A stretch of 64,000 bases of DNA from Chrysomallon squamiferum (Eukaryota; Animalia; Mollusca). The notes under the pieces are model-generated. The model was not told the origin of the DNA and searched no databases. It saw nothing but the letters and a program-made list of their open reading frames with translations. The position numbers and the translations under genes are program-made. Below are positions 14,101 to 62,353 of this stretch, in pieces; within the stretch, counting starts at the first letter, position 1; every line of letters starts with the position of its first letter. The stretch covers positions 6,138,001 to 6,202,000 of the forward strand of contig CM022675.1 of assembly GCA_012295275.1 (NCBI GenBank), written 5' to 3'.

Positions 14101-14560
14101 GAGTGGCTGATGTGCAATTTTTGCGTCAATGAATTAACATTTTTATTATTTTTTGTTATTTTTTATTATTAATATTTATTTTACATTTATTTTCACATGT
14201 CATGTTTGAAATACTCCATCTTTTTAGTTTTTAGTCATAATATTTATTATTCGATTCTAAAGTGATTAAAATTGCACAGGTTAAAACTGATACAGGATCA
14301 AAAATCTTTAAACAACACACCATACATTTCTGTTCTCAAACTAACTCGAGTGTGCACACAGAAGAAATCTGATTTGTAACACTCGGATTTAAAACACGTG
14401 TCTACAGATCTCCTAAGAGCTATCCTGTTTAGTACATAGTCATGTGTTTGAGATATTAATCTTTTTTTTTTGGTTCTTAGTACGCATAAATGAGAGAGGG
14501 TCAAAGATAATCCTTGATATCTGTGAATAGAAAATTGGATATAATGCGTCAAACAGTAAT
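2294..14560 (+). repeat. Mosaic of nested, direct segmental duplications of non-coding blocks
   Basis: 2294-3640 matches 6626-7640. 3830-5780 recurs in pieces at about 7740-8125, 9445-10600, 10605-12360 and 12930-13500. 8125-9160 matches 13500-14560. Confidence 0.9.
4800..4941 (+). promoter_or_regulatory. Putative promoter / non-coding first exon module (copy 1; others at about 10080-10219, 11540-11683 and 32180-32319)
   Basis: A locally CpG-rich block (ctcgagaattcacgcgagatt...ggcggcagtcgcagcgc) ends in a strong 5' splice site, GAG|GTAAGT, with GT at 4936. A homologous block lies upstream of gene 2. Confidence 0.5.
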
Positions 14561-14944
14561 GATAATAATAATAATAACAATAACAATAATAATAATAATA
14601 GTAATAATAATAGTAATAGTAGATTGTACGAATCAAAAACGATACACATAATAATAATAATAATAATACATTTTTATGAAAATTCTCTGAAATGAGTCAA
14701 ATTTTTACAGATGGTGAAAACTAGTCTACAAAAAATCTATTAGTATTTCAACGAAATTATGTTCAGTCATGTTTTTGTCTTTCTTTTTTTTTAATTTTAT
14801 TTATTTATTTTATTTTATTTGTTTTTGTACACCGCAGCTCAAAGTTTTAAACAGTACAATAATACTAAAACCAAAATAATATATTACACACTCACACATA
14901 CACAGATACACACATACACACACACACACTCACACACATACACA

Positions 14945-18483: not shown

Positions 18484-18588
18484 CCAATATGGATGATGAA
18501 AAAGAGGATTCAGACGACATCACAGCTACAGCCACTTCAGACTCGGCCACTGCACAGCCACAACTGTCAAGTATTGCATCTTGTGAAG
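18484..18588 (+). CDS. Duplicated acidic N-terminal exon (MDDEKEDSDDITATATSDSATAQPQLSSIASCE), a possible extra or alternative first coding exon of gene 1
   Basis: ttcag| acceptor and G|gtaatt donor; 105 bp, phase 1-1; ATG at 18489; paralogous to exons 20794-20949 and 35677-35823; can splice in frame to 20794. Confidence 0.5.
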
Positions 18589-19285: not shown

Positions 19286-19432
19286 CAAATATGGATGCTT
19301 CAAAAGAAGATTCAGTCAATTCTAAAACTAGAGTTGTTCCTTTGTCTGATAACAACACAGCTGCATTTACTTCTAACTCAGATACTGTACACGATTTACA
19401 GCCACAAGTGTCAAGTATCACATCTTATGAAG
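19286..19432 (+). pseudogene. Dead copy of the acidic N-terminal exon
   Basis: Reads MDASKEDSVNS...QPQVSSITSYE from the ATG at 19291, but the acceptor reads ttcgg rather than ttcag and the GT donor is lost. Confidence 0.6.
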
Positions 19433-20419
19433 GATTTTAATAACTACAAACATTCTTTAATATATGTTTGCAGGCGCATATTATGTAAAGATACCTTAAA
19501 AACAGAGAAGTTGGACGCAGGCATATTTCATTCTGCCTAATCAATGGTCCATTGTTTTGTATTTACCAAAGGAAAGAATAGCTTAAGCGTCCCAGAAGCA
19601 GGCGGTTTCAAAGGCTAATTTCTATTACATGAGTAGTCAGGGACCGTGTAGGAACCAGTAGAAAATAATGTATAGAAAATAAGTTCTTAGTGACTTTGAA
19701 ACATCAGGTATTTGAATTTTGATACATAATGCAATATGTTGAAATGTCTTGATATTTTAAGCTGCCATGGGGAGCAGCGAAACATTAAAAGCACACCCTG
19801 GGTGTGCATGTGACGAAAGATTATCATTATTATTATCTGGAAGAAAGAACTGTACTGTAAAACACATAAAAATACGACAAAAAACACACACACACAAAAA
19901 CACACACATACATATACACATATTTATCTTTCCTGAATTCTAGATAACCCCAGCGGGGGTAATATATATAAATTGTTACTTCAAATCACAGATCCACTCC
20001 TTTTACTTTTAAGCGATGGAATTGAAATTGCATAACTTTAATAGCAACTACAATCACATCCGTTCCTTTTGTTCTTTCTGTGGCACTGTTATAAAAAAAG
20101 CTGTCATTTGGTAAATAAAGTAAGCGAAGTAAGCGATAGCGAAGAAAACGGTCAACACGAGAATTCAGTCAGGGGGGGAAACCAAATCTTTTTCAATGAA
20201 TTTGCCTTTACGGATGAGTATGGTAAGCAACTGTCTATTCTTATTTTCACAGGGTGTAATGTGTAATTAACCTGTGTCAATAACATTTATTATACCTAAA
20301 ATATTAAGGTTTTAATCTGTCGTCCGTGCAGATTATTATTTTGTCTTAGGTCCCCTTATGACCTTTCTCGTATCATTAATCAAAATTAGTTAAACGTATG
20401 TTTTATGACTGTATAATGC

Positions 20420-23400
20420 ATTATTATCAAGTCACCTGTATTTCATAATTAACTGGTGTTGTGTTTATTTCTCTGATGGATAAATAGACTTATTGATTTA
20501 TATAGATTGCTGTCAATTTAGAGTTTATATTCCTTGTTAGGTGGCCATTAAAGCACCTTGTTTCCCTAGACTGAGCCATAAAAAACCTATATAAGGTGTT
20601 TAAGGGTGTGAACCCCGTGATATACACACATACACCTATGCGCATGCGTGTGTGTGTGTGTGTGTGTGTGTTTATTTAACAGAATCCAATGTCACAATAT
20701 AACAACTTAAACGTGTATTAAAAAAATACATATATAGAAATGAATGTAATATTAACAATCTGTCAGTATATAAACTGATATTTTACACTTCAGCCAATAT
20801 GGATGATGAAAAAGCGGATTCAGACAACACCACAGCTGCATCTACTTCTGACTCAGATGATGAAAAAGAGGAGGACAACACCACAGCAGCAACTACTTCA
20901 GGCATGGATACTGCACAGCCACAAGTGTCAACAATCACATCTTGTAACGGTAATTAATAGCACAGTAGTTTTCTACAATGTAGTTTACTAATTTGATGGG
21001 CAGGTAAAACCAAACAAAATTAATTTTTATAAATGTAACAGTGCAGTTTTTCAGTATATTCTTTAATCTCAAGCAGTTCTACTCTGACAGAGGACAAAGT
21101 TATTGTTTATTTCTGTTGTTTTTACTTTCACTTTAAAGTGTGTGCTGATAATTTTATGGTTATAACGCTATTGAACATACACACTTTTCTGATTTATATT
21201 GAAAAAAAACTAACAATTCAAAACCTTTTCTGTCCTGTTTGTTTCACCCATGAAAACGTTAAAGCAAAACACACACCAATTACTATTTGATTACAATCAT
21301 GACTGTTGTAAATATTCTTGAATTTACTTTTGTTTAATACTATAAAGTAATAGTTATTTCTTAGCACCTACAAAAATAATCAGTTAACAAAGAATATTAA
21401 ACAGATTTCTTTTATATAGTTGTATTTAACAATAACACATTTTATTAATACTGTTTGCTGGATTGTTCTATATATAGATATAAAAAAAACATTTTTAGAA
21501 ATTGTTTCTAAGCAGTGCATTTAAGTCAGTTCATTTACCATTTTACAGATCATACAAGAATACAGACAGTGACAGAACAAAATGTAAATATCGGCTTAGT
21601 TCACAATTACCAGGCCCTATCTCATAACAAAAATGTTGTGATAGGAAGACAAACTGTGAACACTAGTAAGTTAAAAACTGAAAGTTTTGGGTTTTGTGTT
21701 TGCAAGATTGATAGATAATCATTAGTACTTTTCTACCAGACTCTGTGATAAAAACAACACATACACACACATATTTCTAAAGTGTGCATGTTTCAGTGAT
21801 TTTAAAAGATCATCAATAAATATTGAAATACTACGCAACGTATATATAAAACAACAATAACAACAATGACAAAATCAATTAGAACAATAAATAAATTAAT
21901 AATATTTTCAAGAAACAGCAACAATAGCAGTACTGATTATAGTAAGATCAATCAGAAAGATATAAAAATAATGTTACACATTTGCTCTTTTAAGACGCAG
22001 CAGTAGTGTAATTGTACAAGTTGCTGTAAAGAATTCTTGTTTACTTGTAAACAATAGAAAATTATTGTTTTTATTTTCATATTATTTCAGTAAAGAGTGA
22101 TGGAAGAGCATCAAATATGAAAGGTGATTTTTTTCCTTACATTGTTTTGAAAAATGTCCTTTAATAACAAGATAATCATCTAGTTGTTTCTAATCTTAAC
22201 ATTCATGAATAAATATAAATTAATTCTTACTAAGAAATAATAAAGTTAATGTTGATATAGTACAAATAATTATAAAAAGAGTTTATAACAGATTTTAATA
22301 TTTTTTAACATGTTGTGATGCAGTGTTTACCACATCAAGGATAAACTCAGTTGATTGGACTCTCTATGTTGAAACAAGAGCAGAAGAAATAGGTGTTGAA
22401 CTTTTGAAGAAGAATGGTGTTGTGATTGTAATAGGCTGTCCAGGTTCAGGAAAGACAACTCTAGCTTTGAGCATGATGAGGCAGATACAAACAGAAGAGA
22501 AAAGAGAATCTTACTTGCTGACTCACCACACTGAATTCAATGATATCCCTGTATCTAAAGATAAAAAATGTATTATTCTCATCGATGATATATTTGGTAA
22601 AACTAACCTTATTTCAGATTTTAGGCTGTCATGGCAACCAAAATTTCCAACGGTCTGGAGTCTTGTTCAGGATGGTTCTGTGAAATGTATTATTACCTTA
22701 CGAAATCAAATATTTGCAGAAAGTAAAAGCAGTTTGAAGGAATTTGATCTGTTTAATGAGAATCATCTTCTTGATCTTCAGAGTTCTGAATTTTGTCTCA
22801 GTTGGGTTGAAATGAATACAATTTTAAACAAATATCTCAAACAAAAAGATGTTACGATGGAGGAACATGACAAAAGGGAGGTCATTTCCAAGTCATGTAC
22901 AGACTTAGGATTTCCTCAGGTGTGTGTGTATTATGTTAGTTCAAGTGAAGCACAAAAAAGAGGAGCTGAGTTTTTCAAAAAGCCTGTAGAATATCTGAGA
23001 GAACAATTGGAAAATATGAAAAGTGATGAATCCTTACAGATCAATTATCTGGTTCTACTGCTGATCATGTTTCGGCAAGGCAGTCTCAGTATTGATTTGT
23101 TGAACCCCTTTGAAAATGATGGTGAAAGTGAAATAATGAAATTAGTAAAACGGCTAGAGCGTGTCTGTCCAAGTCTAAAAAACACAGATCTTGCAGATAT
23201 TGAGAAAACAGCTGATGTAATGTGTGGTACCTATTTGACGCGTTATAACAATAGATACACATTTATTCATCAGTCAGTATTTGACTGTTTGTTTCTGATC
23301 TTTTCATCAAAGTTTCCAACGAAAGCAGCAGAGTTGCTAGAAGTGTGTCCTGTATCCATGTTGTTAGAATATGTTGTGACGCCTGGAGTGTCTAACAAAA

Positions 23401-26400
23401 GTCACATTACAATGACTGTGCAACCTGACTGCTTTGATGTTCTTGCTCGCAGATGTACTGATTTGCTGGCATCAAGCAGTGCCAGAGAAGTTATTTCACA
23501 TCCGTCACTGAAAGATGAAGAGTTTCTAAAATATCTCATTCAGAAAAAACACTTCCATGGTAAATTGTCCGAAATACTGAATCAGAATCTGCAACAAAAA
23601 ATGTATTATTTCGCAGAGAAGGTAGACAAAATTTTCCTTGATATATTTGAGAACATTGTGCTTTCCCATGACAGTCATTCAAAGTGTTGGACAGTATCCA
23701 ACCCGTGTTTGACAGTTGAAGAAATAAAAATAGATTCATCATCTGTTGCAAGTGAGTGTGTTGTGAATGGTCTGAAAACACTGTCGAGGTGTTTCACAAC
23801 ACATCTGTGTAAAATGACATGTAAAATGACAGAAAAGAAAAAAGAACTTTTGAATATTTCTTGTTTGTTTGGTGATGAAGATGTTGTGAAAATGTTGTTA
23901 CAATCAGGTGTTATTCCATCATTAGATACAATCATAGCAGCTGCACGTTCAAAAACCGACAATGTTACCATACTTAAAGAACTGTTACACTGTACAAAGA
24001 TGAATTTGAAAAAGAATTCCCAGTTGTTAGAACTTTCAATTTGTTCATGTAACATAAACATTGCCTCTTTGTTGGCTGACATTATGAACAATAAGAAAGG
24101 GAACATTAAATTCAAGGAAAAAATCGTAAAACTGTTATTGGCTAGGTTCCATTCACAAGTAAGATCACTCATTATTAAATCTGTTGATACAAGCTCTCTT
24201 TTTAAGAAACTGATTACCATTGAAATAATAAACAAAATTGAAAACATTGCCATCATTGCGGCTGGTCAGATGAATTCAGGAGTTATAAAAGAAATAGTAA
24301 AACTGAAACCTGATTGTTTAAATGATGAGAACAGAGATAAAGTTCTCTTAGCAGCAGCAGCATGGGGTTCTGCTGACACAGTGGATTTCCTCATTGACCA
24401 GAGACGTAATCATACACATGAAAACAACTGGAAGAAAAGTCAAGTACTGAAAATAGCAGTGATGTTTAACAATGCACATGTTGTTCAGTGTCTACTTGAT
24501 AAAGGAGCTGATCCTAATGCTAGTGTAGCTGTTAATAAGACATTGATTAAGTGGTTTGAAGCTCAGTTTTCTGGCTCAGATTTAAGGAAATCACTGGTGA
24601 ATGAAATTGCTGATGTTAATAGAACGAACCCTGTGATAAGATCAGCAGTTTGTATGTATAAAATGAGTACACATTTGTCTTTGCTAGATAAAGGAGTTGA
24701 TATTACAATAACAGATAAGAATAAGAATTCAGCTTTACACCTAGCAGCTGCATTTGGATATCTGGATGTTGTGACAATACTGATTGAAAAAGGTGCTAAG
24801 GTGAACAGTATTAACAGCGAAAGTGAAACTCCTCTTTTTGCAGCCCTCACTTCTTATGAACGACAAATATCTCGGAATCGGTATAAAAAGCATCAATCTG
24901 CAAGTGATAAACAATGGAAAGTTGTTTTTTATTTGCTGGAACATGGAGCTGATCCTAATATAACAGACGGTGATAACATGTCTCCTTTGCACATAGCCGC
25001 TAAACTAGGAAATATAGAAATTGTGACAGAACTGGCAAAAAACGTTTTTGATATAAATATTGAAAACAGTGAAGGTAAAACTCCTCTTTTTACAGCTGTG
25101 GAGTACAAACACAACCATGTTGTTTTCTGTCTACTGAAACATGGAGCTGATCCTAACATAACAGACAGCTATAACAATTCTGTTTTACACACAGCAGCTA
25201 AGCTAGGAAATATAGAAATTGTGACAGAACTGGCAGAAATCGTTTCTGATCTGAATATTAAAAACAGTGAAGGCAAAACTCCTCTTTTTACAGCTGTGGA
25301 GTACAAACACAACCATGTTGTTTTCTATCTACTGGAACATGGAGCTGATCCTAATATAACAGACAGTGATAAGAAGTCTGCTTTACACATAGCAGCTAAG
25401 TATGGAGAATTAGAGATAGTGACAGCACTGATTGAAAAAGGTGCTGATGTTAATATTAAAAGCAATACAGGTAAAACTCCTCTTCTTGAACTTACGGGTA
25501 TATGCTTTAATCATAATCTCTGGATTATAATTTTGTGTTTGCTGGAACATGGAGCTGATCCTAATTTAACAGACAGTGATAACAATTCTGTTTTACACTT
25601 AGCAGCTAAACATGGAAAATCTGAAGTTGTGACAGCGCTGATCAAAAAAGGTGCTAATGTAAACATTAGAAACAAAGTAGGTGAAACTCCTCTTCTTAAA
25701 GCTGTACATCATCAATACCTCTGTCATGATTCTCGTAATGAACATTGTGCAGTAGTTTTGTATTTGCTGGAACATGGAGCTGATCCTTTTTTGACAGACT
25801 GTGATAACAATTCTGTTTTACACTTAGCACCTCAACTAAGCAAAATTGAAATTTTTAAAGCACTCATAGAAAAAGGTGTTGATGTCAATATTAAAAACAG
25901 CAGAGGTGAAACTCCTCTTTATACAGCTATAAACAGATATCAATATGGTACATTCTTTGATGATAAACATTGTGAAATAATTTTGTATTTACTTGCACAG
26001 GGAGCTGAACCTAATTTAACAGACTCTGATAACAATTCTGTTTTACACTTAGCAGCTAAACATGGAAAAATAGAAATAGTGAGAGCACTGATAAAAAAAG
26101 GTGTTGATGTAAACATTAAAAACAGTGAAGGTAAAACTCCTCTTTTTACAGCTGTGGAGTACAAACACAACCATGTTGTTTTCTATCTGCTGAAACATGA
26201 AGCTGATCCTAATATAACAGACAGTGCTAAGAAGTCTGCTTTACACATAGCAGCTGAACAGGGAGAAATAGAAATTGTGAAAGCGCTGATAGAAAATTAT
26301 GTTGATGTAAACATTAGAAACAACAAAGGTAAAACTCCTCTTCTTACAGCTATAGAACAATACGTTTTTCGTAATGAACATTGTGCAGTAGTTTTGTATT

Positions 26401-29400
26401 TGCTGGAACATGGAGCTGATCCTTTTTTGACAGACTGTGATAACAATTCTGCTTTATACTTAGCAGCTATGTATGGAAAAATTGAAGTTGTGACAGAACT
26501 GATTGAAAAAGGTGTTGAAGTAAACATTAAAAACAGCAGAGGTGAAACTCCTCTTTATACAGCTATAAACATATGTCAATATGATACATCCTTTGATGAT
26601 AAACATTGCGAAATAATTATGTATTTACTTGCACATGGAGCTGATCCTAATTTAACAGACAGATATGACAATTCTGTTTTACACTTAGCAGCTGAACAGG
26701 GACATATGGAAATTGTGACAGTTCTGATTGAAGAAGTTGCTGAAGTAAATATTGTAAACAAAGAACATAAAACTCCTCTATATGCAGCTGTATACAACAG
26801 ACAGAATGAAGTTGTAGTTTATTTACTTGAACATGGAGCTGATCCTAATATAACAGATGGTGATAATACATCTGTTTTACACATAGCAGTTAAACAAGGA
26901 AATATAGAAATTGTGACAGCACTGATAAAAAACGGTGTTGACATGAATATTAGAAACAGTGAAGGTAAAACTCCTCTTTTTACAGCTGTTCACTACAAAC
27001 AGAACGATGTAGTTTTGTATTTACTGGAACATGGAGCTGATCCTAATTTAAAAGACAGTGACAACAATTCTGTGTTACACTTAGCAGCTAAACAGGGAAA
27101 TATAGAAATTGTCAGAGCATTGATTAATAAAAGTGTTGATGTAAATATTAAAAACAATAAAGGAAAAACTCCTCTTCTTACAGTTATGAACCGCAGACAG
27201 TACAAAATAGCTTTGCATTTACTGGAACATGGAGCTAATCCTAATGTAATAGACAATGATAAGAATTCTGCCTTACATGTAGCAGCAAAACGTGGATTAA
27301 CAGCAGTTGTGAAGGCACTTGTGGAAAAAGGTGTTGATGTAAATACTCCTAATGCAAGGGGACAAACACCTGTCGAGATGGTTGGTGGTAGACGTAGGGA
27401 AAAACAGAAGATTGTTTCCTATTTATTGAGTCATAGTGCTAAGGAAAATTAAATGATAAAAAGTGTTTTGTATAAATATAACTACTAATAATAATATTTA
27501 CTGCATCATGGAGACAAATGTAATTTGACTGGTGACAGGAAAATTGATGACTTGTTCCAAAATGTGAAAAATGACTTTAGATAGAACTGTTGTTGAGATC
27601 ATCATCTATAAAGTCAGACCAAAATTTCTAAGACATCTCCAACATTGACAAAAATATGTTCCGAATCCAGGTTTGTCAGTATAGACATATTGGAGAAAAT
27701 TGACTTTAAAGAAGTTGTGTCATTTGCGATGTGTGCCGTTAGCAACCACTTGTTTATTGTCAAAAGTCAACAAAATTTCACACGAATAATAAGTGAACTA
27801 ACTGTGAAAGCTAAATAGTTCCTTCTTTATTTGTAATGCTATTCATATAGGAATTATATTTTAAAAATAATTTCAACAAATTAATTTAGATTTAGCTGGA
27901 CTCAAATAAAGTTTAATAAAAAAGATTTCTTTAAAACAAAAATAATATATATATATATATGTTTTTAAATTCAGTTATTTTTCTTTCCTGAAAATATTTC
28001 ATCATAAAGCAATATAGAAATAATTCTATGAAAAATAATATTCTCTGAAATAGTTTTTGATATTTAGAAACAACAACAACAAAGAAATAAATGTGATTTT
28101 TATATTGATAAACTGTATTTTGGTCAAAGATTTCATAATGGGATTTTCCATCATTTATTTTGAATGCGTTTTTCTACTTTCTCCAATTATCTGATCCTTG
28201 ACAACAAAAACAGTTCATTCCTTTAGAGATTCTAATAAATCGATTGTGTTCATCTAGCACTATCAATATAATCATCACTGATCTTGTCAGTCCCATTCTG
28301 GTTATCTGAATCATCATGAATTGAAACTCCATATTCATCAATACCTTCGTCAGAATCTGACAACAAACTATTCACTTGGGCTTTGTTCTATGTACATAAT
28401 GAACAACGTTCTTGTAAATGAGGATTCAAAACAGAAGTATGTTGGGGATATCCCAAATGGGAGATGGGGGAATAATATAATTTTAAAAATGTGCTTTTCT
28501 TTATTTGGTTTACATAAAGAATGATCTTTATATAAAGAATCATCTATAATTAATGATGATTATCAATAGGACAGGGTTACAAAGCAAATACATCTAAGAG
28601 ACATTTCTTCCGAACTGAAAACAACAACAAACAAACAAACTACTTTATTATTAACTGTAAACTGTTATAAATCATTTAGCAAATGAAAGTGAAATACAAA
28701 ATTACTTATTTAAGCATGTGTTTTTTGTGAAATGCGATGCTGTCTTTAGAATACCGAGAAAGCTTAGCACAGAGTTCATACGCCAATCAGCATACTGGAT
28801 ATGCCACACCATCATCTGTATCTTGGCAACAAGACATTTTGTTTATCTTTATAAATTATTATTTACTTTCGTTGATCATGATATCACTGTTAATATGATA
28901 ACAACTATTATAAAATGAGACACAAGATATTTCTGGCTTTTCAGTGATAACAGGATATCGGGGATATCCCTGATAGAAGGACCAAGATTATTATAATAAT
29001 ATTTTGTTCTTAGTTTTGTTCAGATAAATAATGATGATTGTTAGTAAGAGACGATTACTAATTGCAGGTGTTAGACAATTTATATTATAGATACATTAAC
29101 AAGACTGAGAATACTTAAAACAGAAGTGATATTCCTGTTGCTACTTTTGTATTTTATGAGTGACAACTGACTCAGTTTGCTGTCTCGAATAACATTTGAC
29201 TGAATTCTTCTTCCCATTTTGAAACAGATTATTTAATTAAATTAAATTAATATCCCAAAATAAATGTTCAAATAGTTTTGTTTGAAACAGATGTGGATAA
29301 TAATGAATATAACTGTTGTTGTGAAGGAAACTAATTTATGTTTGTAATTTCTGAGGTATGAAGTTTATCTTTATTATGTAGTTCATTCTGATAGACATTG

Positions 29401-30841
29401 ACTTGTGAAATATTTTTAACTGTTTCATCTGGCTTTATTGTTTAAGTAATGTTTTCAGATAGTTATATCTTAAAAATATGAACATTTTTAACTGACTGGT
29501 TTTATCTAATTTCTTATTTTTTATGTTACTCAGTGTATTTACTGTAAGTGCACTTCAAAAGTGAAAAAAAATTCTTGATATATATATGACGTCATTTTAT
29601 TTATGTTTTTCATTATTATTATTATTATTATTATATGTTTTTTTGTATATATTTAAAACATATCTGTCTCTTTGTTATTACTACTACTACGACTAATACT
29701 ATTTTGTTGATTTATGATGTATCTAATCCAGATATGATTCCAGTATATTTTCCTCTTGAATGTATATTGTTTTTATGCATAATAATAATTGTTTTGACTT
29801 TGTTAAAATATTTCAGTTGAAACTTGAATGTGTTTACTGAAAGTACACTTTGAAATTGAAGACACGTATTTTTTGAAGACGAAAACAATAAACAAAAACT
29901 TTCTAACCCTAACCCAATTTTATTATTTTCATTAATATCATTTTTATTTGTTTATTGTTTTTTTAATATTTTTTTTGTTTGTTTTTTTTTTTTTTTTTTT
30001 TTAACATGATTTGGTATTAGCTTTTATTAATTACTTAGAATTGTTTTTTCTTTTTGTTGTATTGTTTAAAAAAGCTTTTTTTATCTTTTGCTGTTGTTGT
30101 TATGACTACTACTACTTTGTTGATTTATAATATATTTGATCCAATTATGCTTCCATTACGTCTTCCTTGAATATTTTCTCGTATTTTTAATTTTTATGTT
30201 CAGTTATTGTTTTCCCTTTGTTAAAATACTTCAGTTAATGACATATTAAATTTGCATTATTCCTGATGTTTTATCACATACCAACCTTAACATATAATTT
30301 TTAAAATTAAACTGCATTTTTCCATTATAATACTTGTGTATCTTATTGATTGTGATGCAAATAATTTGTTTAGTTATTTTCAAGAACTGTTTCTTATTAT
30401 TATTATTACCTTGGTGTAATTTTGTAGATTATTCCTAAAGTAATTTGCTTAATTATTTAATTAGTTTTCTATCCTATTATTTCTAACAATAATTTAGTAT
30501 TCATTTAGTTACTATTTACATTTGTTGATTTAAGTAATTATTTCAAATGTATCAAGAAAGTAAATGTGTTAATTTTCTTATAAAGTTTAATTCACGTAAG
30601 AATTAATAGGTTTGCAGTCACAGAAGTAAATAAATAAAAACTGATTTACACAATCATCAAAGATAAAATATTACAAAGTCTATTTCTTATGAGTTTGTCA
30701 TCAAATGAAAAATAAACAAGGATTTAAGGTTTAATTACAGCATTTATAATCGTTTCATTTAAGGAATCGCAGCTTAGTGTTTTTGGTTGAGCGAAACTAG
30801 TTTTACTTTTATGATGATGATGATGATGATGATGATTATTA

Positions 30842-30872
<31 letters not shown>

Positions 30873-30875
30873 TTT

Positions 30876-30911
<36 letters not shown>

Positions 30912-31190
30912 TTATTTATTTTATTGTAAAATTAATGTTTAGTGTTTTGTTTTGTTGTGTTGCTTCTTTGTTCTTGATTTTTTGTGAGGTTTTTAAATTG
31001 AATTTCTTCTCATTGATAGCACCCATGTTAGCTACACAATTATATGAACACACATATAAATTAATAAGAATAACAGTTCTATGAAAGTGGAAATAAATAG
31101 AAATGTACAAATTATGTAGATTTCATTGTTACTATTATCATTTTTCTATACATTTTAATGTGTATAAGTTAAATTAACCTTCTAACACTA
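20420..31190 (+). repeat. Tandem segmental duplication, copy A (copy B at about 35200-48895)
   Basis: Colinear, high similarity of introns, exons and several kb of 3' flank, for example 27453-31190 versus 44246-48895. Confidence 0.92.
20799..27452 (+). CDS. NLR-like gene 1: acidic N-terminus + RHIM-like motif + nSTAND3-type P-loop NTPase + ankyrin repeat array (about 1809 aa). Exons 20799-20949, 21549-21665, 22091-22123, 22324-27452
   Basis: All junctions are GT-AG, phase 1, in frame and conserved in gene 2. Walker A GCPGSGKTT; Walker B CIILIDDIFG (the DDxFG motif typical of nSTAND3); FIHQSVFD in the winged-helix position; then many GxTPLxxA/SxLHxAA...LLEHGADPN ankyrin repeats. The ORF-track start at 22323 is really the tgcag|TG acceptor. 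Confidence 0.88.
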
Positions 31191-32179
31191 TTAGAACATG
31201 AATATGCCAAACTTAGATATTTTAGGATAAAGTTCAAGAGAAATTTTCATTGTAACAGAAAGGCATCATCTTCTGCAAGAAACTTCCAGTTTGGTTTGCT
31301 TTATATAAATTATTAGCTGCTGCTTGGACAGTCATTTTTCGAAAATGTTATTCCATTTCTTTAATAAGGTGTAAAGTAGAGACTATTAAGTAAAAATATG
31401 CTAATAAGAAAAAAAAGAAAATGCATGAAGATAGATATTAAACCACTTCTTTGTCCCTATTGTTAGTTTTTCATGTCGGAGATCCTGTATTGTAAACGTT
31501 TAATTATGATATTGTAAATATATTATATTGTAAACACTTAACTGTTAAACATATAATTTTATACTGTAAACCCATAGATTGTTTCATTGCAAAGTATAAT
31601 TCACTGTGCGCTTCTCATTGCTATATTGTAAACATATAGCAGTCATGTTGTAAGCATACAGCTGTTTTATTACAAAGATGTAACTAGCACACAGTAAGCA
31701 TATAATATAATGTAAATACAAAATCGTTATATCATTAACAAATAACTTTTGTATTTTAAAGATATACATTTGAATTCTAGACATATAACTGTTATAAGGT
31801 AAACACAATTACTTTACTGTAAAAATATTACTAATTTATTATTAATGTGTACTTAAATAAATAAAGAAACAAATAAATAAATATTAAATACATAAATAAG
31901 TAAACAAAACAAACAAACTAAGAAACAAACAAATAACACAGGATAAAAATATTCATAAAAAACTTCACATTTGTCTTCATACAACTTCGAATTGTAAAGA
32001 CGTCGATTTCAAGATAACTGTATAATTATTAGAATCAATAAAATTAAAACGTTTATTTAGCCTTATGTTATTTATTAAACTATTTGTGACCTTGATACGA
32101 ATGTCAGTAAAGAAATAAATCAATAATTATCACACATAAACAATGTAATCGGGAGTAACCGGGTACAAAGTACACAAAA

Positions 32180-32319
32180 TAATAATCTCGAGGATTCACG
32201 CGACTTTGAATCACGCGATTAAAATGGCGGCTTGTTTTCAGGCGGCTGTCATTGCGCAAACTAAAATGAAAAGATTACAAGGAATTTGTTAGTTAATTTC
32301 TTCTATTTTGAAGGTAAGG
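32180..32319 (+). promoter_or_regulatory. Putative promoter / first-exon module upstream of gene 2
   Basis: Homologous to 4800-4941; YY1-consensus AAAATGGCGGC at 32221-32231; donor AAG|GTAAGG with GT at 32314. Confidence 0.5.
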
Positions 32320-33509
32320 GTATATTTAATTTATTTCTTTATATTCAGTTTCATTTTTTAATGTTATGTTAGTGTATTTACATGCAATATTAATTATAGC
32401 TCATGAGCCATGATGGGGGCGTGGCAGAAATATTTTACACAAACATATTACACACCATTAATGTATTTAAAATATAAAAGTAAAATATCTTCTTAATTAT
32501 TACTTCTAATTGTTTACGTGTATCGTGTAATTAACAGACACATATAAAAAATCGAAACGATGTTTGTTAATTACAATGAAAAGTGACTGAGCTGTGAGAT
32601 TTTTAGTACTGGACGTCTGGGACCGTATGGGAATACCGTAGAAAATAATGAATTTCGAAATAAGTCACCCGTCTCTTAGAAATATCAGTTACAAAGACAT
32701 TTGTATCACTAGGCGGGCGATACTATTATTATTATTACTTAGAAGAAAGGATTGTCATGTTCATTGTTTTCTAAACATACAAAACTTACAAATTATTAAT
32801 TGCTAACGAAGATAAAAAAAAGTCAAGATATTACTTGTCAAATGCTCAGATATTTTAGTACTATTCATTTTGAAATATTTATTTTCCATTGTTTCTTTCT
32901 TTGCTGTGTTGTTGTTGTTGTTGTTCTTCTTCTTCTTATTCTTTATTTAAATCAATTAACAACAATGTTTGTATATATACATACATATATATATTTGTGT
33001 GTATATGGATGTCTGTGTTTGTGTACAAGTGAAGATATATCTGCGTTTTCTCAAGGTATTTTCAGTTTTACTAAACATATAATAATGCACCAAATTCTGC
33101 ATCGAAAACAATATTGTGGTTGAAATTCCCTTGACATTTGAAATTTCAGTGTTGATATTGTCTTTTGTTTTAGAATGATTACTCTGTCATTTTTAACTGG
33201 CCTCCTTGTGAGATAATCTTGAGACAAGAAAAAACACAACATTAAGGAAAATGTTCTTCTTTTATACAGTATTTCTAGCTTTTCTATATAGTGTGAAGTT
33301 CCATGTGTATCGAAATAATGATTCGAAGATAATGGCCGTTTATCCTAATTACTAAAGATTCATAAAGGTATGGTTACAAAATGTCCTCCCCAAAAGAAGT
33401 TTTCTAGTATATTTTATGTGGTTCTTTAGAAGAAAGATGAATACTTAGTTAACTGATGATTTTGTGCACAAATCCTAAAACCAATATAAAATTACCTACT
33501 ATATGAAAT

Positions 33510-33876
33510 ATTGAAATTGTGACAACAGTTATTGAAAAAGGTGTTGTTGTATTTAAAATCAATGCAGGAAAAATGTCTCTTCTGATAGGTTATCACTACA
33601 AATACAATAAAGTAGCTTCGTTTTTACTGGAGCATGGAGCTGATCCTCATTTAGCAGACAGATATAACAATTCTGTTTTACACGTAGCATTTGAACGTGG
33701 AAATATTGAAATTGTAACAGCACTGACTGAAAAAGGCAGTGATGTAAATATCAAAAGTAACAGAGGTTAAACTCCTCTTCACAGAGCTTTAAATTCTGGT
33801 ATATATCAGCATCATCCTGAATGTCGTGAGGAACACTAGTGTGTTGTTTTGTCTTTGCTGGAACATTGTGCTGATT
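33510..33876 (+). pseudogene. Orphan ankyrin-repeat fragment of the same gene family
   Basis: Translates EIVTTVIEKG...LLEHGADPHLADRYNNSVLHVAFERGNIEIVTALTEKGSDVNIKSNRG*TPLHRALNSGIYQHHPECREEH*CVVLSLLEHCAD, with two in-frame stops and no NTPase part. Confidence 0.85.
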
Positions 33877-33905
33877 TATTTCTTTTCGAAACAAAGGAAA
33901 CACAA

Positions 33906-33963
<58 letters not shown>

Positions 33964-34462
33964 GTAATAAAATAAAACAAAATAAATAAAGAAAGAAAGA
34001 TTTTAATTCAGTGTTTCCATTTCCTGAAAAGCATTAAATCATAAATTAAAACAGAAATAATCATTTGTTATATAATTTCACATATATTAACAAACAAGTA
34101 AGTGAAATGTTCTGAGAAGAGGAAAAAAAATCAAAATCCAATAGATAAAATCATGTTGAATCCTTTATAATTACTCCTTCAGTTGTTTGTCTAGATTTAT
34201 CTAGATAATAAGCTGTAAAAAATAAATAAATAAATAAATAAATAATGTACATTCATTATTATAATACTAACACTTGAGAGACTGTGTACATGAACCAGAC
34301 TGATGACGTTATCGGAGAACTCAATAAAATCTGTCATCACTACAATTAACAAAATGAAGGGAGAAATGATTGCTGAGTCACTATGCCTTGTTTAAAGATT
34401 CACCTATTTACCAGACGCAAAAGTTGAATTGTCAAAGAAAAACAAAAACAATAATAATAATA

Positions 34463-34529
<67 letters not shown>

Positions 34530-34554
34530 TTAATGAGAATAATCATAATAATAA

Positions 34555-34585
<31 letters not shown>

Positions 34586-35591
34586 AAATAAACTAAAAAG
34601 TAAAATAATAACAGTAATCATGATCATAATAATTATTATAATTATTATGATTGCTTATGTGCTCGCTAACGAGGTACGGGTCATAGGAGAGATCGATGAA
34701 GCCTGCTTGTTCATTTTCCTCTGTCTCGTAGTTCGTTTAATCGTCTGGTCCTCTTCTTTTACTCTTTCACATCCTCTCAAACAATCGAAGTATACACGAT
34801 CAAATTCTAAAAACATTCAGTGCTGTTGTTTGTTTATATTTCTCTTATCTAGGTCGGCTGCCATGCGACGTGCATGCGTTTATTTATAGGTTTATTTAAT
34901 CAGTTGTCACTGAACCAATGAGATCAACAGCTTGGGCATGACCTTCCCTTTTCTACCACGTGATCAAAATCGTTTCACTACTGAGTTTTAAAAGGTGTGC
35001 GTTCTAAGCAAATTAACAGGTGGAAAATATTAAAAATAATAAAAATAAATGGTAATTGAAAATTATATAAAATAAAAATAAAAATCAACAATAACAATAC
35101 AAAACCCCCTAAAACAAATACATTTGTTTTGAGCCATAGACGCCCAGAATAACGAAAATAATAATAATAAAATTTAAGATGTGTAATACTTATGTTTTAT
35201 TATCAAGTCACCTGTATATCGTAATTAAATAATTAACGTGAACCTTAACTGGTGTTGTGTTTATTTCTCTAGTGGACAAATAGACTTAATGATTTATAGA
35301 GATTGCTGTCCATTTAGCGATTACATTCCTTGCTAGGTGGCCATTAAAGCACCTTCTTACCCTAGACTGAGCCATAAAAAACCCATACAAGGTGTTTAAA
35401 GATGTGAGCCTCCTGACATACACATATACACACCTATGTGCATGCGTGTGTGTGCGTGTGTGTGTTTAACAGAATCCAATGTCACAATATAACAACTTGA
35501 ATATGTTTTAAAATCTGTAACTTTTTATTTTTTATTCTTATTATCTTATTTGCTTTTCTTTATTTCTTTATTATATATACACACACAGAGA

Positions 35592-35623
<32 letters not shown>

Positions 35624-35681
35624 TGAATGTAATATCAACAATCTATCAGTATGTAAACTGATATTTTACACTTCAGCCAAT

Positions 35682-38600
35682 ATGGATGATGAAAAAGAGG
35701 ACAACACCACAGCTGCATCTACTTCTGATTCAGATGATGAAAAACAGGACAACATCACAGGAGCAACTACTTCAGGCATGGATACTGCACAGCCACAAGT
35801 GTCAACAGTCACATCTTGTAACGGTAATTAATAGCACAGTAGTTTACTAATTTGATGGGCAGGTCAAACCAAACAAAATTAATTTGTATAAATGTAACAG
35901 TGCAGTTTTTCAGTATATTGTTTAATCTCAAGCAGTTATTGTTTATTTCTGTTGTTTTTACTTTCACTTTAAAGTGTGTGCTGACAATTTTATGGTTATA
36001 ACACTACTGAACAGACACACTTCTCTGATTTATATTCATAAAAAATTAACAATTCAAAAACTTGTATGTCCTGCAAAACACACACCAATTACTATTTTGA
36101 TTACAATCATGACTGTTGTAATTATTTTTGAATTTACTTTTGTTTATTTTAATACTGTAAAGTAATACTTATTTTTTAGCACCTACAAAAATAATCAGTT
36201 AACAAACAATATTAAACCGATTTTTTTTATATAGTTATATTTTAAAATAATACATTTTATTAATACTGTATCCTGTACAGTTCTATATATAGATAAAAAA
36301 AAAATGTGTAGAAGTTGTTTCTAAGCTATGCGTTTAAGTCAGTTCATTTACCATTTTACAGATCACACAAGAACACAGAGAGTGACAGAACCAAATGTAA
36401 ATATCAGCTCAGTTCAGAATTACTATGCCCTATCTCATAACAAAAATGTTGTAATAGGAAATCAAATTGTGAACACTAGTAAGTTAAAAACTGAAGGGTT
36501 TTGTTCTAGCAAAACTGATAGATAATCATTAGTACTTTTCTACAAGACTCTGTGATCAGAACAACACACAGACACACACGCACACACACACACACATCCA
36601 CACACATCACACACACATGCACACATATTTCTAAATGGTGTGCATGTTTCAGTGATTTTAAAAGAGCATTAATAAACATTGAAATGCTACGAAAAGTATA
36701 TATAAAACAACAACAATGACAAAATCAATTAGAACAATAAATAAATTAATAATATTTTCAAGAAACAGCAACAGTAGCAGTACTGATTATAGTAAGATCA
36801 ATCAGAAAGATATAAAAATAATGTTACACATTTGACCTTTTATGACTCAGCTGTAGTGTAATTGTACAGGTTGTTGTTAATAATTCTTGTTTACTTGTAA
36901 ACAATAGAAAATTATTGTTTTTATTTTTATATTATTTCAGTAAAGAGTGATGGAAGAGCATCAAATATGAAAGGTGATTTTTTTTCCTTACATTGTTTTG
37001 AAAAATGACCATTAATAATATGATAATCATCTAGTTGCTTTTAATCTTAGCATTGATGAATAAATATTATAAACTAATTCTTACTAAGAAATAATAAAGT
37101 TAATGTTGATATAGTACAAATAATTATAAAATAGTTTATAATAGATTCTAACATTTTTTAATTTTTTCTGATGCAGTGTCTACAACATTAAGGATAAACT
37201 CAGTTGACTGGAATCTCTATGTTGAAACAAGAGCAGAAGAAATAGGTGTTGAAATTTTGAAGAAGAATGGTGTCGTGATTGTAATAGGCTGTCCAGGTTC
37301 AGGAAAGACAACTCTAGCTTTGAGCATGATGAGACAGATAGAAAAAGAAGAGAAAAGAGAATCTTACTTGCTGACTCATCACACTGAATTCAATGATATC
37401 CCTGTATCTAAAGATAAAAAATGTATTATTCTCATCGATGACATATTTGGTAAAACTAATCTCATTTCAGATTTTAGGCTGTCATGGCAACCAAAATTTC
37501 CGACGGTATGGAGTCTTGTTCAGGATGGTTCTGTGAAATGTATTATTACCTTACGAAATCAAATATTTGCAGAAAGTAAAAGCAGTTTGAAGGAATTTGA
37601 TCTGTTTAATGAGAAACATCTTCTTGATCTGCAGAGTTCTGAATTTTGTCTTAGTAGGGATGAAAAGAATACAATTTTAAACAAATATCTCAAACAAAAA
37701 GATGTTACAATGGAGGAAGATGACAAACGGGAGGTAATTTACAGAGCATGTACAGAGTTAGGATTTCCTCAGGTATGTGTTTATTATGTTAATTCGACTG
37801 ATGCACAAAAAAGAGGAGTTGAGTTTTTTAAGAAACCTGTAGAATATCTCAGTGAACAATTGGGAAATATGAAAAATGATCAATCCTCACAGATCACTTA
37901 TCTGGTTCTACTGCTGATCATGTTTCAGCAAGGCAGTCTCAGTATTGATTTGTTGAACCCATTTGGAAATGAATGTGACATAATGAAATTAGTAAGAGCG
38001 CTGGAGGGTGCCTGTCTGAGTTTAAAACACACTAGTCTCACACATATAAAGGCAACAGCTGATGTAATGTGTGGCACCTATTTGAATTGTTACAACAATA
38101 GATACACATTTATTCACCAGTCAGTGTTTGACTCTTTGTTTCTGATGTTTTCATCAGAATTTCCAAAGAAAGCAGCAGAGTTGCTAGCAGTGTGTCCTGT
38201 CTCCATGTTGTTAGAATATGTTGTGACACCTGGAGTGTCTAATAAAAGTCACATTACAATGATTGTGCAACCTGACTGCTTTGATGTTCTTGCTCGCAGA
38301 TTTACTGACTTGCTGGCTTCAAGCAGTGCCAGAGAAATTATTTCACATCCGTCACTGAAAGACGAAGAGTTTCTAAAATATCTCATTGAGAAAAAATACT
38401 TCTATGGTAAATTGTCCCAAATACTGCATCAGAATCTTCATCGAGTAAGGCATTATTTAGCATTTGAGGTATGTGAAGATTTCCTTCATCAATTTGAGAA
38501 AATTGTACATTTCAATGACAGCGATTCAAAGTGCTGGAAATCATCCTACCGGTATTTGAGAGTTAAAGAAAGGAAGATGTATTCGTCATCTGTTGCAAGT

Positions 38601-41600
38601 GAGTGTGTTGTGAATGGTCTGAGAACACTGTCGAGCTGTTTCACAACACATCTGTGTAAAATGGAGTTCACAGATCAGGAAAACGAACTTTTGAATATTT
38701 CTTGTTTGTTTGGTGATGAAGATGTTGTGAAAATGTTGTTACAATCAGGTGTTATTCCAACACTAGATACAATCAGAGCAGCTGCATGTTCAAAAACAGA
38801 CAATGTTACCATACTCAAAAAAGTGTTAGAATATAAAATTCTTACCATAATTAAAAAACGTTCAAGGGGTAAAAACGTGGCTTTGAATCAGCATTCCTGT
38901 TTGTTACAACTTTCAATTTATTCATATAATATGAACATTGCGTGTTTGTTGGCTGACATTATGAACTGTGAGGAAGGCCACAGTAAATTCAAAGAAAAAA
39001 TTGTAAAACTGTTATTGATTAGGTTCCATACACAAGTAAAACCACTCTTTGATGTATTTGTTGATATAAGCCATCTTTTTAAGAAACTGGTTACCGCTGA
39101 CATAATTAACAAAATTGAAAACATTGCTATCATTGCTGCTGGTCAGAGGAATTCAGTTGTTATAAAAGAAATAGTAAAACTGAAACCTGATTGTTTAAAT
39201 GATGAGAACAGAGATAAAGTTCTTTTAGCAGCAGCAGTGTGGGGTTCTGTTGACACAGTCGATTTTCTCATTGACCAGAGACGTAATGATACAGGTGAGA
39301 AAAACTGGAAGAAAAGTCAAGTACTGAAAGTAGCAATACTGTTTAACAATGCAGATGTTGTTCAGTATCTACTTGATAAAGGAGCTGATTGTAATGCTAA
39401 TGTATCAGTTGATAGGTCATTGACTGATTGGTTTGAAAAGAAAACTGGATTAGAATGCTTGGATTCTGATTCGCCTCTCCACACATCAGCTCGGCTTGGT
39501 GACTTAGATTTGTTGAAATCACTGGTGGAAAGAAATGCTGATGTTAATGCAGTGAACAGTAAGGGAAAAACTCCACTTCACGATGCTGTGATTATCAAGG
39601 AACATAGAAAAGAATTAGCTTTGTTTTTGCTAGAAAATGGAGCTGATATTAACATTACAGATCAGAATAAGAATTCAGCTTTACATCTAGCAGCAGAACT
39701 TGGATATCTTGATATTGTGACAATACTGATTGAAAATGGTGCTAAGGTGAACATTATTAACAACGAAAGCAAAACTCCTCTTTTTGCAGCCCTCACTTCT
39801 TATGAACAACATCTATCTCTCAATTGTTATCAAAAGCATCCATCCGCAAATGATAAACTTGGGAAAGTTGTTTTGTATTTACTGGAACATGGAGCTGATC
39901 CTAAAATAACAGACGGTGATAACAAATCGGTTTTACACATAGCAGCTAAACTAGGAAATATAGAAATTGTGACAAAACTGGCAGAAAACGTTTTTGGTAT
40001 GAATATTAAAAACAGTGAAGGTAAAACTCCTCTTTTTACAGCTGTGGAGTACAAACACAACCATGTTGTTTTCTATCTACTGGAACATGGAGCTGATCCT
40101 AATATAACAGACAGTGATAACAATTGTGTTTTACATTTAGCAGCTGAATATGGAAAAATAGAAATTGTGACAGCGCTGATAGAAAAAGGTGTTGATATAA
40201 ATATTAGAAACAGTGAAGGTAAAACTCCTCTTTTTACAGCTGTGGAGTACAAACACAACCATGTTGTCTTCTATCTCCTGGAACATGGAGCTGATCCTAA
40301 TATAACAGACAGTGATAACATGTCTGCTTTACACATAGCAGCTAAGTATGGAGAATTAGAAATAGTGACAGCACTGATTGAAAAAGGTGCTGATGTTAAT
40401 ATTAAAAACAATACAGGTAAATCTCCTCTTCTTGAACTTATGAATATATGCTTTGATGAATATCATGAGGACTTTGATCGTGATCCCTGGATTATAATTT
40501 TGTGCTTGTTGGAACATGGAGCTGATCATAATTTAACAGACAGTGATAACAATTCTGTTTTACATCTAGCAGCTAAATGTGGAAAAATTGAAACTGTGAC
40601 AGCACTGATAGAAAAAGGTGCTGATGTCAATATTAAAAACAATGAAGGTAAAACCCCTCTTCTTACAGCTATAAATCATCAATACCGCTGGTACGATTCT
40701 CGTAATGATGAACATTGTGCAGTAGTTTTGTGTTTACTGGAACATGGAGCTGATCCTTTTTTGACAGACCGTGATAACAATTCTGTTTTACACTTAGCAC
40801 CTCAACTAAACAAAATTGAAATTTTTAAATCACTCATAGAAAAAGGTGTTGATGTAAATATTAAAAACAGCAGAGGTGAAACTCCTCTTTATACAGCTAT
40901 AAACAGATATAACTATGGTAGATACTTTGATGATAAACATTCCGAAATAATTTTGTATTTACTGGCACAGGGAGCTGATCCTAATTTAACAGACAGTGAT
41001 AACAATTCTCTTTTACACTTAGCAGCTCAACATGGAAAAATAGAAACTGTGACATCACTAATTGAAAAAGGTGTTGATGTAAACATTAGAAACAATGGAG
41101 GTGAAACACCGCTACTTACAGCTATAAATCATCAATACCTCCGTTATGATTCTCGTAATGAAGACCACTGTGCAGTAGTTTTGTATTTGCTGGAACATGG
41201 AGCTGATCCTTTCTTGACAGACTCTGATAACAATTCTCTTTTACACTTAGCAGCTGAAGATGGAAAAATAGAAATAGTGACAGCACTGATAGAAAAAGGT
41301 GTTGATGTAAACATTAGAAACAGTGAAGGTGAAACTGCTCTTTTTAGAGCTGTAAACTCTTACCAAAACAAAGTAGTTTTGTATTTGATGGAACACGGAG
41401 CTGATCCTAATTTAACAGACAGTGAAAACAATTCTGTTTTACATCTAGCAGCTAAGTATGCTAAATTAGAAATTGTCAAATCACTGATAGAAAAAGGTGC
41501 TGATGTAAACATTAAAAACAATGAAGGTGAAACTCCTATTCTTACAGCTATACATCATCAATACCTCTGTTATGTTTCTCGTAATGAACGTTATCCAGTA

Positions 41601-44245
41601 GTGTTGTATTTGCTGGAACATGGAGCTAAACCTAATATAACAAACAGTGATAACAATTCTGTTTTACACTTAGCAGCTAGATATGGAGAAATTGAAGTTG
41701 TGACAGCACTGATTGAAAAAGGTGTTGATGTAAACATTAAAAACAATCAAGGTGAAACTGCTCTTTTTGAAGCTGTAAACTCTTACCAAAACAAGATAGT
41801 TTTGTATTTGCTGGAACATGGAGCTGATCCTAATTTAAGAAACAGATATAAGAATTCTTCTTTACACATAGCAGCTGAGAATAGAAATATAGAAATTGTG
41901 ACAACTCTGATTGAAAATGGTGCTAAAGTAAATATTAGAAACAAGAAAGGTGAAACGCCTCTCCTTACAACTGTAAATCATGTTAGGGATTTTCACCTTT
42001 TTAAAGATATATATTGCAAGGTGGTTTTGTACTTACTGGAGCATAGAGCTGATCCTAATTTAACAGACAGTGATAACAATTCAGCTTTACACATAACAGC
42101 AAAAAATGGAAAACTTGAAGTTGTGACAGCACTGATTGAAAAAGGTGCTAAAGTAAATATTGTAAACAATGAACATAAAACCCCTCTATATACAGCTGTA
42201 AACTACAGACAGACTGAAGTTGTTGTTTATTTACTGCAACATGGAGCTGACCCTGAATTAAGAGACAGTGATAACAATTCTGTTTTACACATAGCAGCTA
42301 AACAAGGAACTATAGAAATTGTGACATCACTGATAAAAAACGGTGTTGATATGAATATTAGAAACAATGAAGGTAAAATTCCTCTTTTTACAGCTTTTCA
42401 CTACAAACAGAATAATGTAGTTTTGTATTTATTGGAATATGGAGTTGATCTTCATTTAAAAGACAATAACAACAATTCTGTTTTACACATAGCAGCTAAA
42501 GAGGGAAATACAGAGATTGTCAGAGCATTGATTAATAAAAGTGTTGATGTAAATATTAGAAACAATGAAGGTGAAACTCCTCTTCTTACAGCTGTGATCC
42601 ACAAACAGTCCGAAATAGTTTTGTGTTTACTGGAACATGGAGTTGATCCTCATTTAAAAGACAATGACAACAATTCTCTTTTACACATAGCAGCTAAAGA
42701 GAGAAATATAGAAATTGTCAGAGCATTGATTAATAAAAGTGTTGATGTAAATATTAGAAACAATGAAGGTGAAACTCCTCTTCTTACAGCTGTGATCCAC
42801 AAACGGTCCAAGATAGTTTTGTGTTTACTGGAACATGGAGCTGATCCCAATTTAACAGACAGATATAACAATTCTGATTTACACACAGCAGCTAAACAAG
42901 GAAATATAGAAGTTGTGAAAGCACTGATAAGAAACGGTGTTCGCATGAATATTAGAAACAATGAAGGTGAAAGTCCTCTTCTTACAGCTGTGAACCACAA
43001 ACGGTCCAAGATAGTTTTGTATTTACTGGAACATGGAGCTGATCCTAATTTAACAGACATTGACAAAAATTCTGCCTTACATGTAGCAGCTAAACGTGGA
43101 TTAACAGAAGTTGTGATGGCACTTGTGGAAAGAGGTGTTGATGTAAATATCAAAAACAATCAAGATGTAACTCCTCTTTTTACAGCTCTAAACAAAAGAA
43201 TGGGGAAAACAGCTTTGTATTTACTGGAACGTGGAGCTGATCCTAATTTAACAGACATTGACAAAAATTCTGCCTTACATGTAGCAGCTAAACATGGATT
43301 AACAGAAGTTGTGATGGCACTTGTGGAAAGAGGTGTTGATGTAAATATCAAAACAATCAAGATGTAACTCCTCTTTTTACAGCTCTAAATAAAAGAATGG
43401 GGAAAACAGCTTTGTATTTACTGGAACGTGGAGCTGATCCTAATTTAACAGACATTGACAAAAATTCTGCCTTACATGTAGCAGCTAAACATGGATTAAC
43501 AGAAGTTGTGATGGCACTTGTGGAAAGAGGTGTTGATGTAAATATCAAAAACAATCAAGATGTAACTCCTCTTTTTACAGCTCTAAATAAAAGAATGGGG
43601 AAAACAGCTTTGTATTTACTGGAACGTGGAGCTGATCCTAATTTAACAGACATTGACAAAAATTCTGCCTTACATGTAGCAGCTAAAAATGGATTAACAG
43701 AAGTTGTGATGGCACTTTTGGAAAGAGGTGTTGATGTAAATATCAAAAACAATCAAGATGTAACTCCTCTTTTTACAGCTCTAAATAAAAGAATGGGGAA
43801 AACAGCTTTGTATTTACTGGAACATGGAGTTAATCCTAATGTAATAGACAAACATAAAAATTCTGCCTTAGGTGTAGCAGTTGAACATGGATTAACAGAA
43901 GTTGTGATGGCACTTGTGGAAAGAGGTGTTGATGTAAATATCAAAAACAATCAAGATGTAACTCCTCTTTTTACAGCTCTAAATAAAAGAATGGGGAAAA
44001 CAGCTTTGTATTTACTGGAACATGGAGCTGATCCTAATGTAATAGACTATGATGAAAATTCTGCCTTACATGTAGCAGCTATACGTGGATTAACAGAACT
44101 TGTGAAGGCACTTGTGGAAAGAGGTGTTGATGTAAATACTTCTAATGCTATGGGACAAACACCTCTCGAGATGGTTGGTGGTAGACGTAGGGAAAAAAAG
44201 AAGATTGTTTCCTATTTATTGAGTCATGGTGCTAAGGAAAATTAA
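35682..44245 (+). CDS. NLR-like gene 2: acidic N-terminus + RHIM-like motif + nSTAND3-type NTPase + longer ankyrin array. Exons 35682-35823, 36362-36478, 36941-36973, 37177-44245; 1-bp frameshift at about 43350 (about 2453 aa if corrected)
   Basis: Same exon structure and NTPase motifs as gene 1. ORFs 37176-43367 and 43397-44245 join if one A is restored in atcaaaa(a)caatc. The C-terminus (EMVGGRRREKKKIVSYLLSHGAKEN) matches that of gene 1. Confidence 0.86.
43035..44140 (+). repeat. Coding tandem repeat: about 5.5 near-identical 198-bp units (two ankyrin repeats each)
   Basis: Units start at about 43035, 43233, 43430, 43628, 43826 and 44024 (ggagctgatcctaat...). Confidence 0.9.

Positions 44246-51569: not shown

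Positions 51570-62353
<10,784 letters not shown>

Follow-up and report, generated by a model that had tools for sequence, protein, structure and literature searches.

The 64-kb window analysed here (positions 6,138,001 to 6,202,000 of contig CM022675.1 of Chrysomallon squamiferum; all coordinates below count from its first base) is AT-rich animal DNA carrying two tandem plus-strand genes, gene 1 and gene 2, whose predicted products join a STAND NTPase to a long ankyrin array. Two long open frames on the plus strand (22299-27452; 37152-43367, with a continuation in another frame to 44245) hold the large exons of four-exon paralogs, and the coordinates that an initial annotation had given for this pair are confirmed, including the single large exons of 5,129 and 7,069 bp. 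The two genes, together with their 3′ flanks, represent one tandem duplication.

In gene 1, an acidic, Ser/Thr-rich, low-complexity first coding exon (20799-20949), predicted from splice signals, is followed by predicted exon 2 (21549-21665; 39 codons, symmetric in phase 1-1), predicted exon 3 (22091-22123; 33 nt) and the 5,129-bp exon 4 (22324-27452), which encodes the nSTAND3 nucleotide-binding oligomerization domain (NOD), a helical linker, and degenerate and then canonical ankyrin repeats. The corresponding exons of gene 2 lie at 35682-35823 (first coding), 36362-36478 (likewise 39 codons, symmetric in phase 1-1), 36941-36973 and 37177-44245 (7,069 bp). Exons 1-3 of both genes are predictions from splice signals alone; they join in frame, and all six introns are GT-AG and in phase 1. 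Upstream coding exons are needed because the first in-frame methionine of the large exon (position 50) comes after the Walker A motif (position 37). Copies of exon 1 differ by indels that are multiples of three in 3/3 cases, compared with 5/13 in introns, and the 33-nt exon 3 is identical between the two genes. The predicted product of gene 1 has 1,809 amino acids (aa), its large exon remaining open for 1,717 codons. Gene 2 as written stops at 43367 (2,160 aa) because of a frame break near 43350, where an A-run (43350-43353) has four As and its counterparts in four sister repeats have five. This shortfall is probably a sequencing or assembly error, and otherwise a C-terminal truncation; if the break is real, the protein would keep the NTPase and most of the repeats.

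The surroundings of the two genes contain several related sequences. A further copy of exon 1 (18484-18588, plus strand) has intact splice sites, is in frame with gene 1 and may serve as an additional or alternative 5′ exon; in a second stray copy (19292-19433) both splice sites are degenerate. We also recognize a candidate non-coding 5′ exon of gene 2 (32226-32313, plus strand), whose short open reading frame (ORF) stops before the donor, and three copies of it (near 4850, 10130 and 11590) lie within a segmental-duplication mosaic at 2300-14700. A broken ankyrin fragment with ~70-77% identity to both arrays occupies 33505-33875, between this candidate exon and the first coding exon of gene 2.

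Both genes carry the motifs GCPGSGKTT and IDDIFG, and their assignment to the STAND NTPases in the initial annotation is borne out by profile, motifs and fold. Pfam nSTAND3 (PF20720; cut-off 27.2 bits) matches gene 1 at 85.2 bits (E 4.9e-24; 22365-22841, Walker A 22434-22457) and gene 2 at 93.6 bits (E 1.3e-26; NOD 37218-37694, Walker A 37287-37310), and Pfam ankyrin families match both long frames. The NACHT profile scored 17.6 bits in gene 1, below its cut-off of 26.7, and was unlisted for gene 2. Over 60 rows of aligned sequences, G37/G40/G42/K43, D87, R126, G195-F196-P197 (the GFP of the helical domain) and F313/H315 of the winged helix are either invariant or conserved to at least 90%, and we take these residues to be the Walker A, Walker B, sensor-1 Arg, GxP and winged-helix His motifs of STAND proteins, respectively. 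The first 700 residues of exon 4 gave a confident AlphaFold2 model (predicted local distance difference test, pLDDT, 91), which displays the succession of nucleotide-binding domain, helical domain and winged helix, with SAMD9, Avs5 and a STAND-TPR protein as its top Foldseek matches. Among 971 chains compared with VIA-align, MalT came first (Z 14.6, root-mean-square deviation (rmsd) 5.9, 323 residues aligned), followed by NRC2 (Z 13.7), NRC1, NLRC4 (Z 13.1) and the STAND-TPR protein, with Avs5 also among the first (rmsd 3.3); when compared by sequence with the PDB, the NOD gave P-loop matches only. Between the paralogs, the ratio of nonsynonymous to synonymous substitution rates (dN/dS) in the nucleotide-binding domain is 0.20 (Fisher p 3.5e-4), and this domain has therefore been under purifying selection. 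Taken together, the Pfam score, the motifs and the fold support a STAND-class NTPase of the nSTAND3 family in both genes.

The dozens of ankyrin repeats noted initially resolve into 66-residue two-repeat (A/B) units, 13 in gene 1 (24720-27449) and 22 in gene 2 (from 39666), i.e. ~26 and ~44 repeats. Variation within the arrays is highest where the first helix ends and in the loops inserted at that point in the second (B-type) repeat of a unit; these loops add 0 to 18 residues, and 30% of their residues are Tyr, Phe, Trp or His, compared with 8% in the scaffold. The variable positions presumably overlap those randomized for binding in designed ankyrin proteins. The most divergent part of the proteins, both between the paralogs and among relatives, is a 53-residue insertion after the NOD (23583-23741 in gene 1), modelled as strand-helix-strand. 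When the post-NOD region was folded alone (pLDDT 79), ankyrin arrays were its sole structural matches, and the fold search of this model gave no fold assignment for the insertion. Positive selection on the insertion was considered and set aside as not demonstrated: its proportion of nonsynonymous differences between the paralogs (pN 0.27) equals the local synonymous one (pS 0.26), both being raised, a pattern that fits gene conversion or relaxation.

A phmmer search with a threshold of E 0.001 recovered 1,092 cluster representatives, 150 of them listed. The closest named proteins are those of the vent snail Gigantopelta aegis (7/12 matches, 39-48% identity over the NOD) and of Haliotis, and a quick tree of 81 NODs unites both genes and six proteins of G. 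aegis in one clade (Shimodaira–Hasegawa-like approximate likelihood ratio test, SH-aLRT, 100). Passages of the G. aegis report list ankyrin families as expanded in that snail (PMC7895826). The N-termini of the relatives are highly diverse. In the five globular ones that were scanned, Pfam recognized Death, CARD, HEPN_DZIP3 and SAM above the cut-off and DED below it (E 1.8e-6), a caspase is joined directly to nSTAND3-ankyrin in Haliotis rufescens XP_048241358.1, and others bear short motifs. Because the domains found there vary, the slot ahead of nSTAND3 is a position at which effectors are exchanged, much like that of fungal NOD-like receptors (NLRs). Two close G. aegis relatives begin with a hydrophobic segment resembling a membrane anchor, and their NTPase is preceded by a variant motif rich in Gly and Asn. 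In Argopecten irradians, one N-terminus combines a DED-like domain (recognized by eye) with the short motif described below, and another isoform that lacks most of the domain keeps the motif.

In both genes of the window, this slot is filled by ~100 low-complexity residues. As initially reported, no Death-fold, TIR or HEPN domain is recognizable there, the small exons having no Pfam match to such families; likewise, transmembrane (TM), TRADD-N and HEPN segments were absent from the window, as judged by Pfam on the small exons and by tblastn with the N-termini of the relatives. What the slot does contain is the decapeptide LSHNKNVVIG, encoded by exon 2 of each gene (residues 74-83, 21617-21646, in gene 1; 36430-36459 in gene 2), which we describe as a RHIM-like motif. 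The start of the NTPase could be placed in 148/154 proteins, of which the 80 with an N-terminus of at least 30 residues were kept and the other 68 dropped. A pattern that was drawn after viewing these sequences and judged on the same ones (hydrophobic-x-x-small-x-x-hydrophobic-x-hydrophobic-Gly) occurs in 7/80 of the N-termini, compared with a mean of 1.24 in shuffled sequences, and none of 2,000 shuffles reached seven. All seven matches lie within 100 residues of the NTPase; elsewhere there are 26 matches in 149,987 residues. Two looser patterns occur in 12 and 16 of 82 rows (including two out-of-frame window translations), where 5.8 and 6.6 were expected. The carriers come from G. aegis, Argopecten, Potamilus, Sinanodonta and Solemya, thus spanning snails, scallops, unionids and Solemya, and they are scattered on the quick tree, with at least five changes forced by well-supported branches.

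Further observations concern the motif of the window itself. Unguided MAFFT aligns the motifs in register, albeit within a set picked by eye. With five bivalve instances as the sole reference for scoring, no 18-mer of either whole protein ranks above the window motif, reaching 16.4 (next best 6.2) in one and 13.4 (next best 6.4) in the other, with 1 and 10 of 1,000 shuffles, respectively, scoring as high. One G. aegis relative has the core VQFG, which is close to the GIQIGA and GVQVGD cores of Kajava et al. (PMC4262963). The ten motif residues are the same in both paralogs, while 9/39 residues of exon 2 differ, a contrast of borderline significance (p 0.047). Searches of the ESM Atlas were uninformative: exon 2 gave unnamed clusters, the best at 0.85, and a unionid motif gave no usable match.

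The initial annotation regarded the two products as non-canonical intracellular immune sensors, and this part of its proposal is likely, since the N-terminal slot of relatives holds Death, DED, CARD, caspase, HEPN or SAM domains and the ankyrin arrays vary in repeat number and loops. For the receptor part alone, we consider it quite probable that gene 1 and gene 2 encode intracellular immune receptors. That these receptors also act through an amyloid step, mediated by the exon-2 motif and directed at a partner encoded elsewhere, has in our estimate a probability of about 45%. Each product would rest as a monomer; a microbial or damage ligand would be bound by the ankyrin array, and binding would, by analogy with known STAND proteins, open the NOD in a nucleotide-dependent manner and lead to oligomerization, possibly into a ring or, as in Avs5, a filament. 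Oligomerization would cluster the flexible N-termini, whose exon-2 motifs would then stack in a RHIM-like beta arrangement and template the partner. More tentative still is the broader proposal that molluscs possess a large class of Avs5-related nSTAND3-ankyrin receptors, a subset of which, including both genes, may signal through an amyloid motif that is RHIM-like but divergent and is encoded by a swappable symmetric exon, which would represent fungal-style NLR amyloid signalling in a protostome.

The amyloid step of the initial proposal may be regarded as plausible, given that comparable motifs stand ahead of the NTPase in snail and bivalve proteins. Other results weigh against it. The RHIM core tetrad is given, in passages of PMC9444067, as (V/I)-Q-(V/I/L/C)-G, whereas the core in both genes is VVIG, without the glutamine. 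Pfam RHIM (PF12721) matched 0/2 exons and 0/24 N-termini of relatives, in a search that had no true-RHIM control and in which short motifs are hard to detect; PDB searches with exon 2 and with an 11-row motif profile, again lacking a true-RHIM control, retrieved no RHIM or HET-s chain. In addition to the pattern having been fixed after the sequences were seen, its seven carriers include close pairs. Among the remaining 73 relatives, only three score at least 8, much like shuffled sequences (1 to 5 in six shuffles), so that the motif is a minority feature. RIPK-like kinases of Spiralia are described as lacking RHIMs in part of PMC10492769, and RHIM surveys of nemerteans were negative according to passages of PMC9835746. 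Exons 1-3 diverge between the paralogs at approximately the intron rate, with a dN/dS of 1.2. Within the window, exon 2 matches its own two copies only, so that it offers no partner with a shared motif, and proteins of 30-886 aa included no candidate partner for a G. aegis motif. Nor is positive selection on the post-NOD insertion supported, since its synonymous divergence is equally high. Unguided expectation-maximization motif discovery suffered from overfitting and missed the motif.

Several of these results fit what we regard as the main rival, namely that both products are effector-less sensors whose N-terminus is a drifting linker and whose NOD contacts the NODs of helper paralogs bearing Death, CARD, caspase or HEPN domains. 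Sensor/helper NLR pairs work by such a division of labour. The near-neutral evolution of exons 1-3 next to a constrained nucleotide-binding domain, the negative RHIM tests, the many effector-bearing members of the family and the numerous relatives with short N-termini and no pattern match are all in its favour. However, the motif reappears, in register, in distantly related molluscs, is the same in both paralogs and resides on a symmetric exon of its own, and on balance we consider the effector-less sensor rather unlikely.

Less probable again are incomplete gene models or decaying genes, such that a conventional effector exon is spliced from upstream or the copies are silent. An acceptor five bases ahead of the ATG could indeed take a phase-1 exon in frame, and the frame break in gene 2, the stray exon-1 copies and the nearby broken ankyrin fragment point in the same direction. 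On the other hand, tblastn with the N-termini of the relatives gave only low-complexity chance matches outside the genes, and no match to an effector domain; the stretch between gene 1 and gene 2 has no ORF of at least 150 aa; gene 1 has a long open frame, and the nucleotide-binding domain is under purifying selection; and the break in gene 2 sits in a homopolymer within near-identical repeats. The products could also be non-immune regulatory scaffolds, i.e. nucleotide-switched ankyrin adaptors resembling MalT, which is a STAND transcription switch. MalT is the top VIA-align match, yet it is nearly tied with NRC2, and the tandem duplication, the difference between 13 and 22 units, and the death or RNase domains of relatives suggest conflict genes; moreover, Avs5, itself an nSTAND3 protein, is antiviral according to passages of bioRxiv 2025.07.08.663546 and PMC11897194. 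We therefore judge the scaffold to be the least probable of these explanations.

The immune receptor with a RHIM-like motif, which we continue to favour, has precedents for several of its parts. For TRADD-N/(HEPN)+nSTAND3+Ankyrin proteins of the oyster Crassostrea virginica, a counter-invader role was proposed (Kaur et al. 2021, PMC8195603, Fig. 4 source data). As far as the relevant portions of that work describe them, they are, like the products of genes 1 and 2, mollusc proteins in which ankyrin repeats follow nSTAND3, but have TM, cysteine-rich, TRADD-N and often HEPN segments in front, where genes 1 and 2 have low-complexity residues and a short motif. Branchiostoma BF82280, a RHIM-NACHT-repeat protein with an NWD2-like STAND layout (Kajava et al. 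2014, PMC4262963), is likewise an animal STAND protein with an N-terminal amyloid-type motif in the usual place of a death fold; however, it has NACHT and its motif was found by a RHIM profile, whereas genes 1 and 2 have nSTAND3 and a motif that fails both Pfam RHIM and the tetrad. With fungal NWD2/HET-S and PNT1/HELLP and bacterial Bell/BASS, as portrayed in parts of PMC9815663, PMC4262963 and PMC12881547, they have in common a short N-terminal motif, a STAND domain and highly similar tandem repeats; in these systems, unlike in the 64-kb window, an adjacent partner gene shares the motif. Bacterial Avs5 (SIR2-nSTAND3-helical repeats; PDB 9jap, 9nc9) belongs to the same Pfam NTPase family and aligns at Z 12.4 over 185 residues, and forms a filament instead of a ring, as stated in a section of PMC11897194. 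It differs from genes 1 and 2, with their ankyrin sensor, in its enzymatic SIR2 effector and TPR-like sensor, and the available portion of bioRxiv 2025.07.08.663546 makes no mention of an amyloid motif. Canonical animal NLRs (NACHT-LRR with Death folds) share the tripartite layout and the STAND fold, as reflected in the match to NLRC4, but genes 1 and 2 have NACHT below the cut-off, no LRR and no Death fold.

Beyond these genes, the window contains, on the minus strand at 51500-61000, exons of a leishmanolysin-like (Peptidase_M8) gene, of which the exon at 60678-60938 has an E of 1.1e-7, while Pfam matched none of five other candidate frames. At 54397-56409 and 62528-63367 lie satellite arrays, their units measuring 67 bp and 56/106 bp.

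The novelty suggested by the initial annotation is reduced, because nSTAND3 with ankyrin repeats in the oyster (in the cited part of PMC8195603) and a RHIM-NACHT-repeat protein in amphioxus (PMC4262963) have already been published. We found no publication that links mollusc nSTAND3-ankyrin proteins with a RHIM-like motif, although subscription papers lay largely outside the search and a figure or supplement of Kajava et al. may list mollusc RHIM proteins. A 2022 survey describes, in the passages cited, NLR-linked amyloid signalling as specific to fungi and bacteria (PMC9815663), and the one animal exception found is the computational amphioxus case (PMC4262963). The two genes belong to a mollusc architecture that is already known, possibly with an effector type that is new.

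Molluscs are reported, in part of PMC11463336, to be without APAF-1, which makes the caspase-nSTAND3-ankyrin protein of Haliotis rufescens of interest. RIPK-like kinases of molluscs are also reported to be without RHIMs, and the motif would matter for what organizes their intracellular death and immune platforms. If the motif described here does not work, genes 1 and 2 would be ordinary members of a catalogued mollusc expansion; if it does, it would offer a 39-residue handle on a family of more than 1,000 sequence clusters, pointing to an effector yet to be found.

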